Virus record (IMG/VR): IMGVR_UViG_3300001528_000699
Location: 35,508 to 99,507 of that record
Reading direction: 5' to 3' (one strand)
Source: a virus
Taxonomy: Duplodnaviria; Caudoviricetes
DNA length: 64,000 bases
Position 1 is the first letter of the stretch, and each line of letters begins with the position of its first letter. Shown one piece after another: positions 15,536 to 56,216 of this stretch. Below the pieces are notes generated by a model, which searched no databases, was not told the DNA's origin, and worked only from the letters and a program-made list of their open reading frames with translations. The translations under genes and the position numbers were made by a program.

Positions 15536-17572
15536 ATGTTATTCAACAACGAGCAAATACAGGATATACTTGAATTGGTGGATTTCAGGTTCGCTGATCT
15601 GGTGTGGAAGATATTCGGACCATCTCATTTAACCTCGCAGGACAAGGAGAAGTTGAGAAAGTTCGGGGTGAACCCGTCATCGCTCGTTAAAAAAATACCG
15701 CCCTATTGGGCTAACTGGATGTTTGGCCTTCTATCAGGAAAATTGAATGATTACCAAACCAAGCAAATAACGTACAAGGATCTTCTCGAATATCTCGGAA
15801 GAAGGCAATACGAGACACCATCTAAAAGGGAGATAGAATCGTACGAGGTGGCCTGCAATCGCACGTACGGTTATTTGAAAGGGTTGGGTGATAAGATGAA
15901 GAAGGATATAACGAGTTACATATCTGATACCGAACTTCAAACTAGGATGGAGCAGGATCGTGTCATAAAGGAGGGGATAAAAAGAGGTATCTTGGAAAGG
16001 GATACGACAAAACTCATAGCTTCTAAAATAAGTAACCAGTTGGATGACTGGTCAAGGGATTGGAACAGGATAGTGGAGACGGAGTATCAGGGCGTTTTTA
16101 ACATGGGTAGGGTACAATCCTACATGAGAGAAGGAGACGGAGAGAATACGCTAATTTATTTCGACGTGTTTCCTGGCGCATGTTTTCCAACCTCTGATAC
16201 AGAATTTTTAACGGATGAGGGGTTTAAATTGTTAAAAGATATTAGGGGGGATGAAAAAGTTGCGTCATTTAATATTGAAACGAATACCTTGGAATATACT
16301 GAAATTGAAAGTAAAATTCAATATTGGTATGAGGGCGTGATGAATGAATATAAGCATCATTCCCTTGATATGATCTGCACCCCTAATCATAAACAATTAA
16401 TTGGGATAGATTACCACCCCAAAGAAGGTGTTTACACAAAAAATCAATTAATTGATAGTTCGGAAGTTCCTTCCTTAACAAAACGGGCATATATGTATTA
16501 TACCGTTGATAATTGGGTTGGGCATGATGATGAAAAAATTGAAATTGCAGGGAAAAGGTTTGATACAAAGCCTTTTGTGAAAATGATGGGTTGGTATTTA
16601 TCGGAAGGTTCAGTGGTTCCAAGAAAAAGTGACAAGAATGGTCATTATAATTCAACTCAGTTATGCATTTCGCAATCAAAAGTTAGTAATTTTGATGAAA
16701 TCAAGGATTGCCTAGATAAAACATTTTGCCAAAAAGTGTATTACAGTTCGTCTCGGAATAATATTGATGGTCATTTTGTCGTATTGTTGGATAAATCCTA
16801 TGATCCGTTCGTTAAGTGGTTAAAATCATTAGGTGATAGAGCGCATACGAAAACAATTCCAAAAGAAATAAAATTATTATCGAAAAAATATCTTTTTGAA
16901 TTTCTGCTATCTTATTGGAAAGGAGATGGTTTCGGTAGGGGTGGGACTTTTATGGATGGAAATCGTCATATTGTTACGTCATCAAAGCAAATGGCGGATG
17001 ATTTATCGGAGATAATTTTAAAGTGTGGTTACCGACCTTCATTAAAAATTATCGATAAGAGGGGTGTAACAACATTTTCAAAGAAAAGAAATAAGTCGTT
17101 TACCACCAGGCACCTGATTTATAAAGTGGGTATTTTGATAAGTAAACATTTTAATTCAATATATAAACATTTTAATGTGATTGATAATTGGAAAGGCGAG
17201 GTTGGTTGTTTGCAATTAAAAAAGAATTCGACATTATATATAAGGAGAAGTGGCCAATCAATTTGGAGCGGGAATTGTAGGCATTGTATAAGGTTATACT
17301 TAACCGGTGGAATAGGTAGCGAACCTAAATTGTTCACTATCAAGGAATTGATGGGAAACGGAACTAATATAGGTAGAAAGGTAAATGATTGGAAACCAAC
17401 GGTTATAACCAGTATTCACCCCTTCTGTAGGTGCTTGGCTCGCAGGTATATGAAAGGCGATGTCTGGGACAAGGAAACGAGATCATTCAAGCAACCTGAA
17501 CATTACGAGAGAAAGGTGGCACCTAAAGTGAAAGTCAGAATACAGGTAGGTGATAAAGTTTTCAACGTTTAA
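15536..17572 (+). CDS. MuF/SPP1 gp7-like head morphogenesis protein containing an intein
   Basis: WNRIVETE, CRHC and HPFCRC MuF motifs flank the insertion. Confidence 0.85.
   Translation: MLFNNEQIQDILELVDFRFADLVWKIFGPSHLTSQDKEKLRKFGVNPSSLVKKIPPYWANWMFGLLSGKLNDYQTKQITYKDLLEYLGRRQYETPSKREIESYEVACNRTYGYLKGLGDKMKKDITSYISDTELQTRMEQDRVIKEGIKRGILERDTTKLIASKISNQLDDWSRDWNRIVETEYQGVFNMGRVQSYMREGDGENTLIYFDVFPGACFPTSDTEFLTDEGFKLLKDIRGDEKVASFNIETNTLEYTEIESKIQYWYEGVMNEYKHHSLDMICTPNHKQLIGIDYHPKEGVYTKNQLIDSSEVPSLTKRAYMYYTVDNWVGHDDEKIEIAGKRFDTKPFVKMMGWYLSEGSVVPRKSDKNGHYNSTQLCISQSKVSNFDEIKDCLDKTFCQKVYYSSSRNNIDGHFVVLLDKSYDPFVKWLKSLGDRAHTKTIPKEIKLLSKKYLFEFLLSYWKGDGFGRGGTFMDGNRHIVTSSKQMADDLSEIILKCGYRPSLKIIDKRGVTTFSKKRNKSFTTRHLIYKVGILISKHFNSIYKHFNVIDNWKGEVGCLQLKKNSTLYIRRSGQSIWSGNCRHCIRLYLTGGIGSEPKLFTIKELMGNGTNIGRKVNDWKPTVITSIHPFCRCLARRYMKGDVWDKETRSFKQPEHYERKVAPKVKVRIQVGDKVFNV
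16181..17275 (+). mobile_element. Intein (365 aa) with LAGLIDADG-type homing endonuclease
   Basis: Starts CFPTSDTEFLT; block B CTPNH; GWYLSEG and SYWKGDG motifs; ends WSGN before +1 Cys; AT-rich. Confidence 0.9.
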
Positions 17573-17634: not shown

Positions 17635-18270
17635 ATGGAAGAAACAAGTACTCTCGTGAAGTTGATAGCTGATAACGGTATAACGGTCGTGCTAAGTGCT
17701 GTCACGATAATCATATTCTTGAACGTTTTCCGGAAAGCTACTAGAAACTGGGAGAGGATGGAAAAGAAGAATGATCACCTCATCGACTTGATAGTGGCGA
17801 AAGGAACTGCCGGTGATTACATGGAGAAACAGATCGAGATAAATAACAACATGCTTTCCATATTGAAAGAGATAAGGGAGGGTGCGACGAAAGAATGCAC
17901 GATAGAGCAAGTCAAAACAACCACTAACGCTCTTTTCGATCTCGCCAAGTTCACCATGTTCGAGGAGGTGAAACGGATAAAAAAGGAGAATCATCTAAAT
18001 AACGAGGCGGCTATCGAAACGAAAGTGAAAACGATCGTTCATCAAAGAATAAATGACAGGAAAAGCAAACTGTACAATTACAACTGGAAGGGAAAGCCTT
18101 TAAGCGAGTTTAACTCCGTTTCGAAGGATGATATAGTCGATATAATGATAGGGGAGCTCTACGCGCCTGACGATTTCTCGGAAGAGAGGGTGAAAAGGAA
18201 TATGGAGCTTTTCTATGATAACATGAAACTTGATTTGTTCAATGAAATTGTGGCGTATAATAATTTATAG
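17635..18270 (+). CDS. Single-TM protein, holin-like
   Basis: IADNGITVVLSAVTIIIFL N-terminal TM then helical soluble domain. Confidence 0.5.
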   Translation: MEETSTLVKLIADNGITVVLSAVTIIIFLNVFRKATRNWERMEKKNDHLIDLIVAKGTAGDYMEKQIEINNNMLSILKEIREGATKECTIEQVKTTTNALFDLAKFTMFEEVKRIKKENHLNNEAAIETKVKTIVHQRINDRKSKLYNYNWKGKPLSEFNSVSKDDIVDIMIGELYAPDDFSEERVKRNMELFYDNMKLDLFNEIVAYNNL

Positions 18271-18271
18271 T

Positions 18272-19999
18272 ATGAACTGGTTGAAAAAGATACTTGGAAT
18301 GACGGCGTGTAGCAAGGAGGAGAAGGTAGCCCGCTACATGGAATTGTTGAAAAGCATGGATGTTATCGAATCGGAAGCTGACGAGCTGGCCGATTCTTTC
18401 CGTTTAAACAAATCGATGGTTGATAACGTGAAGGGTTGTGACATGGAAGAGATGGATAAGAGATTGGAAAGATTTGATGAGTTCATGCTGTGTCATAAGA
18501 AGGATGTTCACGAGCTACTGAAGGCGAAGATGGAAGTGGAGGATGAGATGAAGAAATTGAAGGAAGACCCCTCTATCTCTAAAGATATCAATGACATCGA
18601 TACTTATTTTAAAGCCAAGAAAGAATACAAGGCACGGAAATCAACGTTGAAAGAATTTAACGGTTCGATCAGGAAAGCGAAAGAAGGTCCTGTCAAGTAC
18701 TCGGATGCCTTGGTGTTCGATTGTAACGGGAAATTGTTGATCCTTCACAGGATACAGGATGGCAAGCATTGCGAGGGAGGTGAATGGTGCATCCCCGGTG
18801 GTCACGTTGATCCGGGTGAGAACCATCGTGAAGCGGTAGAGAGGGAATTGAAAGAAGAAACCGGGTTGAAATTGAGAATGGAACCTGATCCGGCTGGATT
18901 CTATAACGACGATGAAGCGGATATTCATTATTACCGTGCCTTCACTGAAGAGAGTGAACCCTCTATCCTGGTTGATAGCACGGAGCATGATGGCGTGGAA
19001 TGGATAGATTTGAGAGATATAGACAAGTACGATTTCATATTCAACATGAAAGATAACCTTAAAAAATTACTCGGCATGGAAGAGAAAGAAGAGAAAGGAC
19101 CGGATACCATAGAGATACTCGCTAAAGCGTTAAAATCCGGTCAGATAACACCGGCTGTTTTCAGGGAAGCGGTCGAGAAAGCTAAAAATAAAACTTATTT
19201 CTCGGAGAAGGAACGTGGAAAACTCGCTAAAGAAGGCGAAGCGATGCCTAACGGGAAATATCCAATAAGAAACGCTCAAGATTTGAAGGATGCCATTAAA
19301 CTGGTTGGGGCGTCATCCATGCCGGAAGGTGAGGTAAAATCGTGGATCAAGAAAAGAGCGAAAGAGTTGAACCTTGAAAACGAGCTACCAGAAGATTGGA
19401 GGGATGTCGAGAAAGCGGTGGGAACGGAACAGGCGGAAACTATCGCGAGAGAATCGCTAGACGGTGAAATGAAGGATGATCGGGTTGAGAAATCGTCCTT
19501 CTCTATTCGCGTTGATTTCGATGACTTGGAGAAAGCCGATCTTTTCAAATCCATGGTGGAGAAATATAAATCGGAGGGTGATCTCGGTATAACGAGTGTT
19601 GACGTGATCGATATTGATGAAAACGAGGATAAAGAAATTTTCCGGGATTACCTGAACTTCATCGAGGGTGCTAAAACGAGAATCAAGAACCTGCACTGGA
19701 CGGAAGAGGATAACGCCAAGCACGTTTACCTAGATGAATTATCTGAAGAGGTGTCAAAATTCGAGGATAAGATAGCGGAAGCGGGTCAAGCGAATTTCGG
19801 TCGGTTCAAGGATGGTGAGATAGTGGGTGATGATATCCAAACGAGCGATCCTATCATGATCGTTGACCTTTTACTTGATATGACGAGCTCTTTCCGGTCC
19901 AAGTTGAATGAAAGACTCGTTTATAACGGTGAGATTTCATGGGTGGATGATTTCCTCGCCACTTTAAAGCAGATCAAATATCGTTTGCAATTACATTAA
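18272..19999 (+). CDS. Multidomain protein: coiled coil + Nudix hydrolase + DUF6582-like + Dps/ferritin-like (DUF5856-like)
   Basis: Nudix box GHVDPGENHREAVERELKEETGL; PNGKYPIRNAQDLKDAI...LPEDW; KNLHW...HVYLDE...EDKIAE. Confidence 0.8.
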   Translation: MNWLKKILGMTACSKEEKVARYMELLKSMDVIESEADELADSFRLNKSMVDNVKGCDMEEMDKRLERFDEFMLCHKKDVHELLKAKMEVEDEMKKLKEDPSISKDINDIDTYFKAKKEYKARKSTLKEFNGSIRKAKEGPVKYSDALVFDCNGKLLILHRIQDGKHCEGGEWCIPGGHVDPGENHREAVERELKEETGLKLRMEPDPAGFYNDDEADIHYYRAFTEESEPSILVDSTEHDGVEWIDLRDIDKYDFIFNMKDNLKKLLGMEEKEEKGPDTIEILAKALKSGQITPAVFREAVEKAKNKTYFSEKERGKLAKEGEAMPNGKYPIRNAQDLKDAIKLVGASSMPEGEVKSWIKKRAKELNLENELPEDWRDVEKAVGTEQAETIARESLDGEMKDDRVEKSSFSIRVDFDDLEKADLFKSMVEKYKSEGDLGITSVDVIDIDENEDKEIFRDYLNFIEGAKTRIKNLHWTEEDNAKHVYLDELSEEVSKFEDKIAEAGQANFGRFKDGEIVGDDIQTSDPIMIVDLLLDMTSSFRSKLNERLVYNGEISWVDDFLATLKQIKYRLQLH

Positions 20000-54509: not shown

Positions 54510-54758
54510 TCATTTTCTTGATGGACCCCATCTATCTATACATTCAAATAGTTTATCGAAAAAGAAATCAGGTATGAACACCGTGTCTTTCCACTCGAAA
54601 TCTTTTACCATGTAACCCTGTTGATTGTCCGGGTATTCGCTAGAAGTGATACTTTTTCTTTCCTTGTATTCCCAGAATTGAAGTTTTAGGGCTTCCACCT
54701 CGATTTGATCTTCTTCTGTCACGTACGCTTTCCAGCCGTTTATTTTCTCTTCTTTCAT
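54510..54758 (-). CDS. Hypothetical protein (start shortened to MKEEKING)
   Basis: A-rich leader and TATATTTA box at 54784-54791 on minus strand. Confidence 0.6.
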   Translation of the reverse strand: MKEEKINGWKAYVTEEDQIEVEALKLQFWEYKERKSITSSEYPDNQQGYMVKDFEWKDTVFIPDFFFDKLFECIDRWGPSRK

Positions 54759-54809
54759 CGTTTTATCTGATTGATTTATACCGTAAATATACGAAAAATT
54801 ATCGGAATA

Positions 54810-54841
54810 TTTGCTTATTTGATAAATATAGTGTATCTTTA
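54810..54841 (+). promoter_or_regulatory. Promoter of candidate ncRNA
   Basis: TTTG-N20-TATCTTTA. Confidence 0.7.
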
Positions 54842-54845
54842 TCTC

Positions 54846-55209
54846 GTTCTTTATCATGTTGAAGGGTGTACTCGACCCCACACATCCAGGATTGATGATC
54901 CGAAACAACTTGGGGAGACAGTAAGATGACGTGGACATTAAACAAAGACCTGCTCTGACCCACCCCGTGTCAACAGGCAACGCACACTCATATACTTGGG
55001 CTGAGACCTGTCCATTGCTTTGCGGAGGAGTTTTCATCTATATTGTCTGAATCGTATATTGTATTCATCCTCTATTAAAGATGTAATCAATATAGAATAT
55101 GATCTTATTAATATCCTATATAATACAATATATTGATTATCTGTATATTAGGTTGAAGATGGACCTCAACCGTAATGTGCGGAGAAATCGGGGTATACTC
55201 AGAAAGGAA
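54846..55209 (+). ncRNA. Candidate approx. 350-nt multi-stem structured RNA of unknown class
   Basis: Terminal stem 54864-54875 / 55188-55200 plus at least seven nested stems with G-U pairs on the + strand; no ORF on +. Confidence 0.6.
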
Positions 55210-55247: not shown

Positions 55248-55279
55248 TTTGGGTAATAAATAAACAACGTGTATCTTTA
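55248..55279 (+). promoter_or_regulatory. Promoter of DNA-metabolism operon
   Basis: TTTG-N20-TATCTTTA. Confidence 0.75.
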
Positions 55280-55318
55280 TCGTATTGATAATAATTGTTT
55301 TTATTTAATAAACGACTA

Positions 55319-55831
55319 ATGGTTCCGGTATATAAGATAATACAAGTTTATGAGTACATGTACCAGAGAACGTATATGCAACCTGATTACACCGTGGCGA
55401 GAACGGGCAGGAACCTGAAACTTTTATCCAGGTTTCAAAAGATGATACCGATTGATGCGGGAAATGATTTTATCTGGAATTATACTGTTCACGCCTTCTG
55501 GTGTTATGACGGGAAACTTCTGAGAAGGAATATCGAGTTGAATTGGATTTACTGTCAAAGAATGGTGGAGCGGTATCGAAATCGAACGGAAGATCAAATA
55601 TATCGATTGCAGCAATACAAGGAGTCTAAGACAATAAAAAATCCGTTAAAAGAAGGATATGAGTTGAAGCTATCAGAAGAATATCGAAACAAGCAAAGGA
55701 GAAAGTATTGGAACACTCCCCGAGGTTATTTAAATTGTCTTGATTTCGGGGGAATCCTCTATGACAAGGAGAACGCGTTGTGTAAAAATTGTAGGTATAA
55801 AAAACATTGCAATGGTATTGAAAACAAGTAA
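55319..55831 (+). CDS. Hypothetical protein with C-terminal Cys cluster
   Basis: C...CKNCRYKKHC. Confidence 0.7.
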   Translation: MVPVYKIIQVYEYMYQRTYMQPDYTVARTGRNLKLLSRFQKMIPIDAGNDFIWNYTVHAFWCYDGKLLRRNIELNWIYCQRMVERYRNRTEDQIYRLQQYKESKTIKNPLKEGYELKLSEEYRNKQRRKYWNTPRGYLNCLDFGGILYDKENALCKNCRYKKHCNGIENK

Positions 55832-56216
55832 AGGATTCTGTCAAAAATGCGGAAATTATCGGTTTATAGCGAATAAAAAACACGGACTGTGTAATTCATG
55901 CAATAAAGAGAGATTATTCGTTAAAACAGATATAAAACAGCTAAAACGAAGTTCAATCTGTCAGAGAAAAAGAAAATCCACGGGAGAACGCGAATTATTC
56001 TTGGAAATATGGGGTGAGAGACCGCACTACTGCGAGCACTGCGGGTCGTATCTTGGCGATGAACCCAGGGTTCATTTTTTCGCTCACGAAAAAGGAAAAG
56101 GGGCGCATCCCGAAGAGAGATTGAACAAGGATAATGTTCATCTTTGGTGTTTGGAGTGTCATAACGCTCATGATTTTAAATCGAGAGAAGAATTTTTGAA
56201 AAGAAAATTGAAATAA
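55812..56216 (+). CDS. HNH/NinG-like endonuclease
   Basis: CQKC/CNSC Zn finger; CEHC...FAH...NVHLWCLECH. Confidence 0.75.
   Translation: MVLKTSKGFCQKCGNYRFIANKKHGLCNSCNKERLFVKTDIKQLKRSSICQRKRKSTGERELFLEIWGERPHYCEHCGSYLGDEPRVHFFAHEKGKGAHPEERLNKDNVHLWCLECHNAHDFKSREEFLKRKLK

Follow-up and report, generated by a model that had tools for sequence, protein, structure and literature searches.

A covarying, pseudoknotted RNA and a linked small protein gene in phages of the human gut

The stretch of DNA considered here (the window; 64,000 nucleotides, bases 35508-99507 of the phage record IMGVR_UViG_3300001528_000699) belongs to a complete phage genome of 99.5 kb with direct terminal repeats (a 75-bp repeat). 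On its plus strand, positions 54861-55200 very probably constitute a non-coding RNA (ncRNA) gene of ~340 nucleotides (nt), which represents an uncatalogued family, folds around a five-way junction and, together with the gene for a small acidic protein (p82), makes up a two-gene accessory cassette. The RNA element lies in a ~560 bp gap between a minus-strand gene (its reading ends at 54758) and a plus-strand gene, ~2.4 kb upstream of the large terminase gene. The first gene of the downstream operon probably begins at the ATG at 55319 (+). The closest match of the large terminase is uncultured human-faecal phage DNA (57%) and, among isolates, the Bacteroides thetaiotaomicron phages DAC16-DAC23 and SJC03 (36%); the related contigs, where labelled, come from human-gut metagenomes. 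The features of the locus are as follows (aa, amino acids).

54861-55200, plus strand: structured RNA, conserved core of ~340 nt; five-way junction closed by helix P1 plus a pseudoknot
54864-54870, plus strand: 5′ strand of helix P1 (GGGUGUA), pairing with 55194-55200; 7 pairs, 100% paired
54876-54915, plus strand: hairpin A; outer stem CCCCA/UGGGG (54876-80/54911-15), inner stem GGAU/AUCC, UGAUG loop
54916-55048, plus strand: domain B; long stem 54916-29/55034-48, inner stem 54931-37/55009-15, enclosing hairpin C
54947-54978, plus strand: hairpin C; CCUG-CUC-UGAC ... GUCA-A-CAGG, with a frame that is invariant across all lineages
54963-54967, plus strand: 5′ strand of the pseudoknot (CCCCG, hairpin C loop), pairing with 55189-55193
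55050-55138, plus strand: domain D; AT-rich 16-17-bp helix (55050-65/55122-38) and a three-way junction; the variable, expandable part
55140-55183, plus strand: hairpin E, which includes GGUUGA/UCAACC and is followed by the conserved single-stranded AGAAAU
55189-55193, plus strand: 3′ strand of the pseudoknot (CGGGG, tail), pairing with 54963-54967
55194-55200, plus strand: 3′ strand of helix P1 (UAUACUC), partner of 54864-54870
54510-54758, minus strand: p82 gene; encodes the acidic orphan protein of 82 aa that constantly accompanies the RNA
54783-54800, minus strand: invariant block GTAAATATACGAAAAATT, which reads TATATTTA on the minus strand and is invariant in alignment A1
54810-54841, plus strand: predicted promoter P1 of the RNA, TTTG-N20-TATCTTTA, Bacteroidetes type
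55248-55279, plus strand: promoter P2 of the downstream operon, a repeat of promoter P1 and the right border of the cassette

Selection on RNA pairing and the architecture of the RNA

Homologues of the RNA were collected by three routes. A neighbouring protein led to 13 related phage contigs, four of which carry the RNA element (76-92% identity) while nine are without it. The contigs that encode homologues of the small protein supplied additional RNA copies of greater divergence, and a profile search turned up a single distant relative of the protein, the contig of which (L085) holds an RNA copy. This copy has only ~58% identity in the 5′ domain and represents a sixth lineage in which the architecture is retained. 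One metagenome pattern scan added further RNA-bearing contigs. In total, the family comprises about two dozen contigs and six lineages, with 13 distinct RNA sequences in the alignments.

The main covariation test used a sequence-only MAFFT alignment of nine homologues, which was not fitted to any structure. RNAalifold recovers from this alignment the stems that the original prediction had listed from the window sequence, and every one of them is present and retained in the homologues. The 89 pairs of the structure are 98.8% paired, compared with 31-47% after a shift of the 3′ partners by 1-3 columns. Changes on both sides are seen in 16 of the pairs, and none of 500 shuffles attains the observed covariation score, which is the outcome expected of a functional fold when related phages are compared, as had been proposed. 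A covariance model of the 5′ domain aligns the L085 copy at 75 bits (E = 2e-15). With L085 included, 18 of the 38 pairs in this domain have compensatory changes, in an alignment that is fitted to the model and so leans toward the structure; the L085 RNA, when folded on its own, also arrives at this architecture (z = -2.9).

The minimum free energy fold of 54846-55209 reproduces the nested stems. Its energy is better than that of shuffled sequences, as anticipated, but only modestly (z = -1.95 for the plus strand, with 3 of 100 shuffles as good, and -1.54 for the minus strand), and is not convincing by itself. Folding energy alone is weak evidence here; covariation in the relatives is decisive. 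The same alignment identifies the functional strand. Over the whole structure, 89 G-U cells stand against 4 A-C cells, and while the plus strand is 98.8% paired, its complement would be 87.6% paired. Selection has therefore acted on the plus-strand RNA and not on a DNA cruciform or a minus-strand transcript, in keeping with the earlier suggestion that the imperfect pairs favour RNA on this strand.

Helix P1 closes the junction. Its 5′ strand is invariant, and its 3′ strand is altered only by transitions that retain G-U or U-G pairs. The closing stem as originally drawn was longer. Seven of its base pairs (54864-70/55194-200) hold, whereas the inner three compete with the covarying pseudoknot 54963-67/55189-93, and one of these three replaced pairs is broken in L082. 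The pseudoknot, which together with the linked p82 gene is an addition to what had been described before, connects the loop of hairpin C to the tail. It reads CCCCG:CGGGG in most copies, CCUAG:CUAGG in L082 and L087, and CCCGC:GCGGG in L085, such that all five pairs are 100% paired, two of them with compensatory changes, and two independent covariation events support it. Stacked beside helix P1, the pseudoknot very probably locks the fold.

Hairpin A is nearly invariant in the lineage of the window, with a conserved internal loop (CACAUCC / CGAAACAAC) and UGAUG loop. In L085, its outer stem is changed from CCCCA/UGGGG to CUCCA/UGGAG and its inner stem to GGUAG/CUGCC. The long stem of domain B consists of AGACAGUA/UAUUGUCU and AGAUGA/UCAUCU and its inner stem of GUGGACA/UGUCCAU; compensatory changes are found at 13 of 20 pairs, and the unpaired stretches GCAACGCAC, GAGACC and UGCGGAG are conserved. 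Within this domain, the frame of hairpin C (CCUGCUCUG...CAACAGG) is identical in all six lineages, and its inner stem UGAC/GUCA becomes UGGU/ACCA in L085. Domain D has five pairs with compensatory changes, inserts of up to ~85 nt in L073 and L076, and a three-way junction that bears the conserved unpaired GUAAUCAA. Hairpin E has two compensatory pairs and many G-U/G-C switches. The helices of domain D and hairpin E in L085 have equal lengths and unrelated sequences.

The sequence G[C/U]GGAG occurs twice per RNA, in the internal loop of domain B (55020-55026) and at the base of hairpin E (55178-55185). Both copies are retained in nearly all lineages, including L085, with ACAGAG as a variant in L078, and the paired sites could be candidate protein-binding sites. 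Three other readings of the sequence were dropped since, judged by eye, they are unconserved across the lineages: a 22-codon open reading frame (ORF) from 54857, a box C/D or K-turn reading of UGAUGA...CUGA, and a sarcin-ricin mimic formed by the hairpin E loop. L003, L082 and L085 have lost the ATG at 54857 with which the short frame begins in the window.

The cassette: p82, promoters and mobility

The RNA and the p82 gene co-occur in every sufficiently long contig that has either of them, in all six lineages, and are arranged divergently with 100-125 nt between them. Constant linkage of an RNA to a protein gene, the criterion for an OLE/OapB-like particle, is thus found here in two genome contexts. 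The p82 homologues are 79-85 aa long, all start at the same ATG (54758), and fall into five clusters at 90% identity. Relative to L005, differences at the three codon positions number 17/16/36, an enrichment at third positions. A profile search of 1.84 billion representatives gave only one true relative. No match was found in Pfam, PHROGs, PADLOC, the PDB sequences or the ESM Atlas, Foldseek returned nothing at E<=0.001, and the best VIA-align rows (a PUR repeat, PC4/Sub1-like and unrelated folds) had Z <=3.7, below the noise level of the tool.

A minus-strand ORF of 175 aa (54510-55037) overlaps the RNA, but the real gene is its last 82 codons only. Other copies also have ORFs antisense to the RNA; besides the extension in the window (54759-55037, minus strand), a 120-aa "gene" has been called in L078-L080 (L078:147-509). 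These ORFs are unconserved across the lineages and are probably gene-caller artefacts. Recognition of the RNA therefore corrects gene callers, which put spurious ORFs on its antisense strand. Upstream of p82, TATATTTA is a candidate -7 box of the gene, as judged from its invariance; a matching -33 TTTG was not found on the minus strand.

The original prediction placed the RNA directly after a consensus promoter. A promoter motif is indeed present, but it is of the type TTTG / TAnnTTTG, which we take to be the -33/-7 promoter of Bacteroidetes, and not a sigma-70 consensus; a sigma-70 scan gave nothing convincing ahead of the RNA. The motif TTTG-N18-21-TAnnTTTR occurs 10 times in the window, compared with 2.8 +/- 1.5 in shuffles (none of 100 shuffled sequences has as many as 10). 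The other nine copies are each located upstream of a gene and oriented toward it, and promoter P1 alone faces the RNA. This excess and the orientation toward genes support the view that promoter P1 functions as a promoter of the class used by the phage itself, with a transcript start that is likely near 54846-54850. Taken together, the covariation and the motif family bear out the description of the element as a promoter-driven, highly structured plus-strand ncRNA. All 10 sites (1835, 1963, 6794 and 9243 on the minus strand, 11103, 47793, 54810, 55248, 56219 and 62159) end in TTTA, and the family TTTG-N18-21-TAnnTTTA provides a ready map of the transcription units that the host RNA polymerase would serve in this phage.

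Promoters P1 and P2 form a 38-nt direct repeat that flanks the RNA, with 79% identity, and the first bases after each are alike as well. The nine relatives without the RNA (L006-L014), in which the neighbouring 187-aa gene is 74% identical, lack the entire ~750 bp cassette. In these phages, P2 comes immediately after the terminator of the 187-aa gene and is the sole promoter there. In the L085 phage, the cassette is instead found upstream of homologues of the window genes at 17635-19999, in the head-cargo region, and its other neighbours are without counterpart in the window. The RNA and p82 are thus inherited as a unit, which is present or absent in close relatives and has moved as such between two positions. 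The slot just after promoter P2 (window 55280-55320; L002:4363-4919; L006:3646-4273) is a second variable site, with ~555 bp extra in L002-L004, a 201-aa gene in L006-L014, and nothing in the window. This variable slot and the P1/P2 repeat suggest that cassettes are exchanged through recombination at the promoter repeats.

These data bear on the suggestion, also part of the original prediction, that the locus is an R-loop element, that is, a replication origin with a primer RNA and an AT-rich unwinding region. The GC content of 19% at 55050-55149 and the position between gene modules would fit an origin. However, the element is missing from the nine close relatives and is located elsewhere, in the head-cargo region, in L085, and therefore the RNA is not an essential origin. 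Moreover, the AT-rich part is a covarying 16-17-bp RNA helix with variable inserts, the G-U asymmetry indicates pairing of RNA and not of DNA, and the cumulative GC skew is still rising through the site, with no turn. A role at the DNA level is accordingly very improbable, and this part of the prediction did not survive the comparison.

No intrinsic terminator (a hairpin with a U-run) was found after the RNA. Either processing would therefore make its 3′ end, or a read-through transcript begins with the RNA. In the latter case, the RNA could be a cis-acting 5′ leader, with transcripts from promoter P1 running through the fold into the downstream operon. The next genes are on the same strand and only ~75-120 nt away in both contexts, which together with the lack of a terminator-like hairpin speaks for such a leader. 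The downstream genes are nonetheless wholly different between the two contexts, and a separate promoter motif precedes the next gene in each (P2 in the window and a TATTTTTA box in L085). In addition, the relatives without the cassette express the same operon from P2 alone, and the sole constant neighbour of the RNA is the divergent p82 gene. We consider a leader unlikely, and the same applies to its variants taken jointly: a processive antiterminator (as in HK022 put or EAR RNA), an mRNA-stabilizing 5′ cap structure, or a ligand-sensing, riboswitch-like leader.

Two observations concern the surroundings of the cassette. In L085 (4266-6453, and the same region in L086 and L094), the RNA/p79 cassette and small orphan genes (67, 194, 190, 85 and 170 aa) form an island of ~5.5 kb. 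The genes that border it are homologues of window 15536-17572 and 17635-18270; in the window, just 62 nt separate these two. In the window itself, ~550 bp downstream of the RNA, a weak HNH-endonuclease-like ORF (55740-56216, plus strand; PHROG 144, E = 4e-4) overlaps the last part of the gene before it; no link between this ORF and the RNA was found.

Known RNA families and possible roles

The element had not been matched to tRNA, transfer-messenger RNA (tmRNA), RNase P, signal recognition particle (SRP) or 6S RNA, and the searches agree. Rfam 15 at gathering thresholds gave nothing in the window; at E<=10, the window and two diverged homologues gave only noise plus a weak match of one hairpin to freshwater-1 (see below). 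ARAGORN predicts 0 tRNA/tmRNA genes in the window, for which Rfam gave no match either, and the covariance models for RNase P, SRP and 6S RNA have no match at the gathering score or at E<=10; judged by eye, the sequence also lacks GGAAAGUCC / ACAGAA P4 strands. No Rfam matches to group I/II introns or self-cleaving ribozymes were obtained. The class of riboswitches and cis leaders was set aside on account of the unrelated downstream genes in the two contexts, the lack of a terminator-like element, and the intervening promoter. A ToxIN-like type III toxin-antitoxin system was rejected given the lack of tandem repeats and a protein gene that is divergent and without a PADLOC or Pfam match.

At the sequence level, the family is narrow. 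The gap gave no blastn match among 50,697 phage records, and exact-pattern scans with two conserved patterns gave 0 matches in 185,579 prokaryote species genomes, which at exact-pattern stringency gives no indication that bacteria or prophages have a copy. When single 15-18-mers were scanned against viral sequences, most matches were due to chance, and nhmmer finds the RNA only in the four known relatives. Two single hits were dismissed, L154 from the looser viral scan (a GC-rich chance match over a tRNA gene) and L092 from the metagenome scan (also by chance). Model R1 found no second copy of the RNA in the phage genome, and no account of this RNA, or of a function for freshwater-1, was found in a search of the literature. 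No antisense targets of the conserved unpaired stretches were found in the 99.5-kb genome beyond the matches expected by chance (the 7-mer CACAUCC has seven such complements and the 9-mer GGAGAAAUC has one). As far as such complementarity indicates, the RNA does not appear to be an antisense regulator of phage genes.

Comparison with known systems gives partial likenesses. The ornate RNAs ROOL, GOLLD, OLE and raiA are large bacterial and phage RNAs for which cryo-EM structures are available (bioRxiv 10.1101/2024.12.08.627333). The present RNA resembles them as a long, multi-helix, pseudoknotted ncRNA in phages that is recognized only through covariation; it differs in that it is smaller (~340 nt), very narrowly distributed, and without a match to them in sequence or structure model. 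The pRNA of phi29 is likewise a phage-encoded, promoter-driven structured RNA. However, pRNA is essential to its phage, while the present RNA is absent from close relatives whose packaging genes are the same, and Rfam detects no match to pRNA in it. The P4 CI RNA, P1/P7 c4, lambda nut/N and HK022 put are hairpin elements of 60-100 nt that act on specific neighbouring operons. With these, the present RNA shares its place right after a promoter in a phage and possibly action with a small phage protein, but it has ~340 nt, a five-way junction, and no constant downstream gene. Among the ornate RNAs, OLE works with small dedicated proteins that are encoded beside it (OapA/B/C).

We regard the explanation that the folded RNA gene and p82 form a two-gene accessory cassette with a trans-acting RNA as moderately probable overall. 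The mechanism itself, in which a stable RNA works in trans with p82 on a factor that is relevant in some hosts, is more tentative, and we would not put it at even chances. In such a mechanism, the RNA would be made as a separate stable molecule, the closed fold of helix P1 and the pseudoknot either releasing it from a read-through transcript or protecting it at the 5′ end of such a transcript. It would then act in trans with p82, as a ribonucleoprotein or as one of two parts of a single pathway. Its target would be some factor of the host or the phage whose importance is limited to certain hosts; the RNA might, for instance, sequester a host RNA-binding or defence protein or mimic its ligand. 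This host-interaction reading is put forward because accessory, p82-linked, dispensable and relocatable behaviour is typical of such cassettes. A decoy or scaffold role, as first proposed for the RNA, is possible.

Several points weigh against the explanation as a whole. The p82 protein is acidic (~13 K/R vs 18 D/E), which is unusual for an RNA-binding protein, and its AlphaFold model, with five strands and two helices, is only moderately confident (predicted local distance difference test, pLDDT, 67). We infer that p82 binds the RNA from the linkage of their genes, and linkage alone does not show binding. Transcription of the RNA and the ends of the transcript are likewise predictions from motifs and conservation, and an RNA without a terminator could stay attached to the downstream mRNA. 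Finally, with a family this narrow, the covariation rests on few independent events.

Two other possibilities involve p82 in different ways. The RNA could be a ribozyme or self-processing RNA of a new class, for instance one that defines its own ends by self-cleavage, with p82 as a cofactor. Its size and a multi-helix junction locked by a pseudoknot resemble catalytic RNAs, it has invariant unpaired blocks (CGAAACAAC, GCAACGCAC, GAGACC, GUAAUCAA and AGAAA), and the lack of a terminator means that processing is needed if the RNA is discrete. Even at E up to 10, however, there is no similarity to the ribozyme families in Rfam; the RNA is not inside a gene or tRNA, being positioned between genes right behind a promoter, and so is not an intron; and nothing indicates a substrate. 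Such an activity is improbable in our view. Alternatively, the cassette could be a selfish mobile module of the toxin-antitoxin or exclusion kind, in which the RNA neutralizes p82 or the reverse. The strict two-gene linkage, the patchy distribution and the movement between genome sites would be expected of such a module. Against this, there are no tandem repeats (type III) and no antisense overlap (type I), p82 is an acidic, non-hydrophobic protein with no match in PADLOC or Pfam, and known RNA antitoxins are far smaller and less elaborate than this RNA. This alternative is slightly less probable still than a ribozyme.

It is rare for a large structured RNA to combine a well-supported fold with no known function, and every such RNA has proved informative (RNase P, riboswitches, OLE, ROOL/GOLLD). 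The present one is unusually tractable, given its strictly linked small protein, natural relatives with and without the cassette as controls, and a hairpin that is shared with freshwater-1, an orphan Rfam family of unrelated phages. If the RNA and p82 do form a host-manipulation or anti-defence device of gut Bacteroidota phages, they would bring a mechanism based on RNA into a field concerned almost wholly with proteins. If the RNA is merely a stable by-product, Rfam would nonetheless gain a new family.

A hairpin shared with freshwater-1 RNAs

The freshwater-1 motif (RF02979) reportedly comes from the Weinberg et al. 2017 motif set (PMC5737381); the motif is not named in the main text of that paper. 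Hairpin C matches it at 13.7 bits in L073 and 12.5 bits in L085, with no match at E<=10 in the window. The gathering threshold of the 62-position model is 72 bits, and true members score 81-85 bits; with scores far below the threshold and nothing beyond hairpin C that aligns, membership of the RNA in this family was rejected. The frame CCUG-CUC-UG...CA-A-CAGG of hairpin C nevertheless matches exactly the most conserved freshwater-1 letters. True freshwater-1 copies are also phage RNAs, located within the tRNA gene arrays of aquatic phages. Their loci are thus tRNA arrays from freshwater without p82, in contrast to the present RNA, which is found in the human gut together with p82. The model of the 5′ domain finds nothing in the freshwater-1 loci, and what the two have in common is therefore a shared module and not overall homology. 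The module may stem from common descent, from convergence on a structural motif or from a ligand that both bind. A 34-bit tblastn match to p82 in the freshwater-1 contigs L112/L122 is located 3 kb from the RNA there and was judged to be due to chance.

The shared frame raises a broader scenario, in which the RNA and p82 would be a new phage ribonucleoprotein, exchanged among phages as a cassette that counters or exploits a host factor, and hairpin C a widespread handle with which many phage RNAs engage one conserved bacterial protein or RNA. We consider this combination doubtful, albeit conceivable. The loops of the two hairpins differ: the freshwater-1 loop is a covarying 6-nt palindrome, while the equivalent loop in the present RNA forms an intramolecular pseudoknot.

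By eye, the freshwater-1 copies (L097-L153, e.g., L099:3900-4150, minus strand) appear to be part of an RNA of ~190-200 nt, which would be closed by a terminal stem of its own and extend well beyond the 62-nt Rfam model. Their loops are nearly always covarying palindromes (GUGCAC, UGGCCA, GUCGAC and GUGCGCAC), a pattern which suggests that these RNAs may form homodimers through kissing loops.

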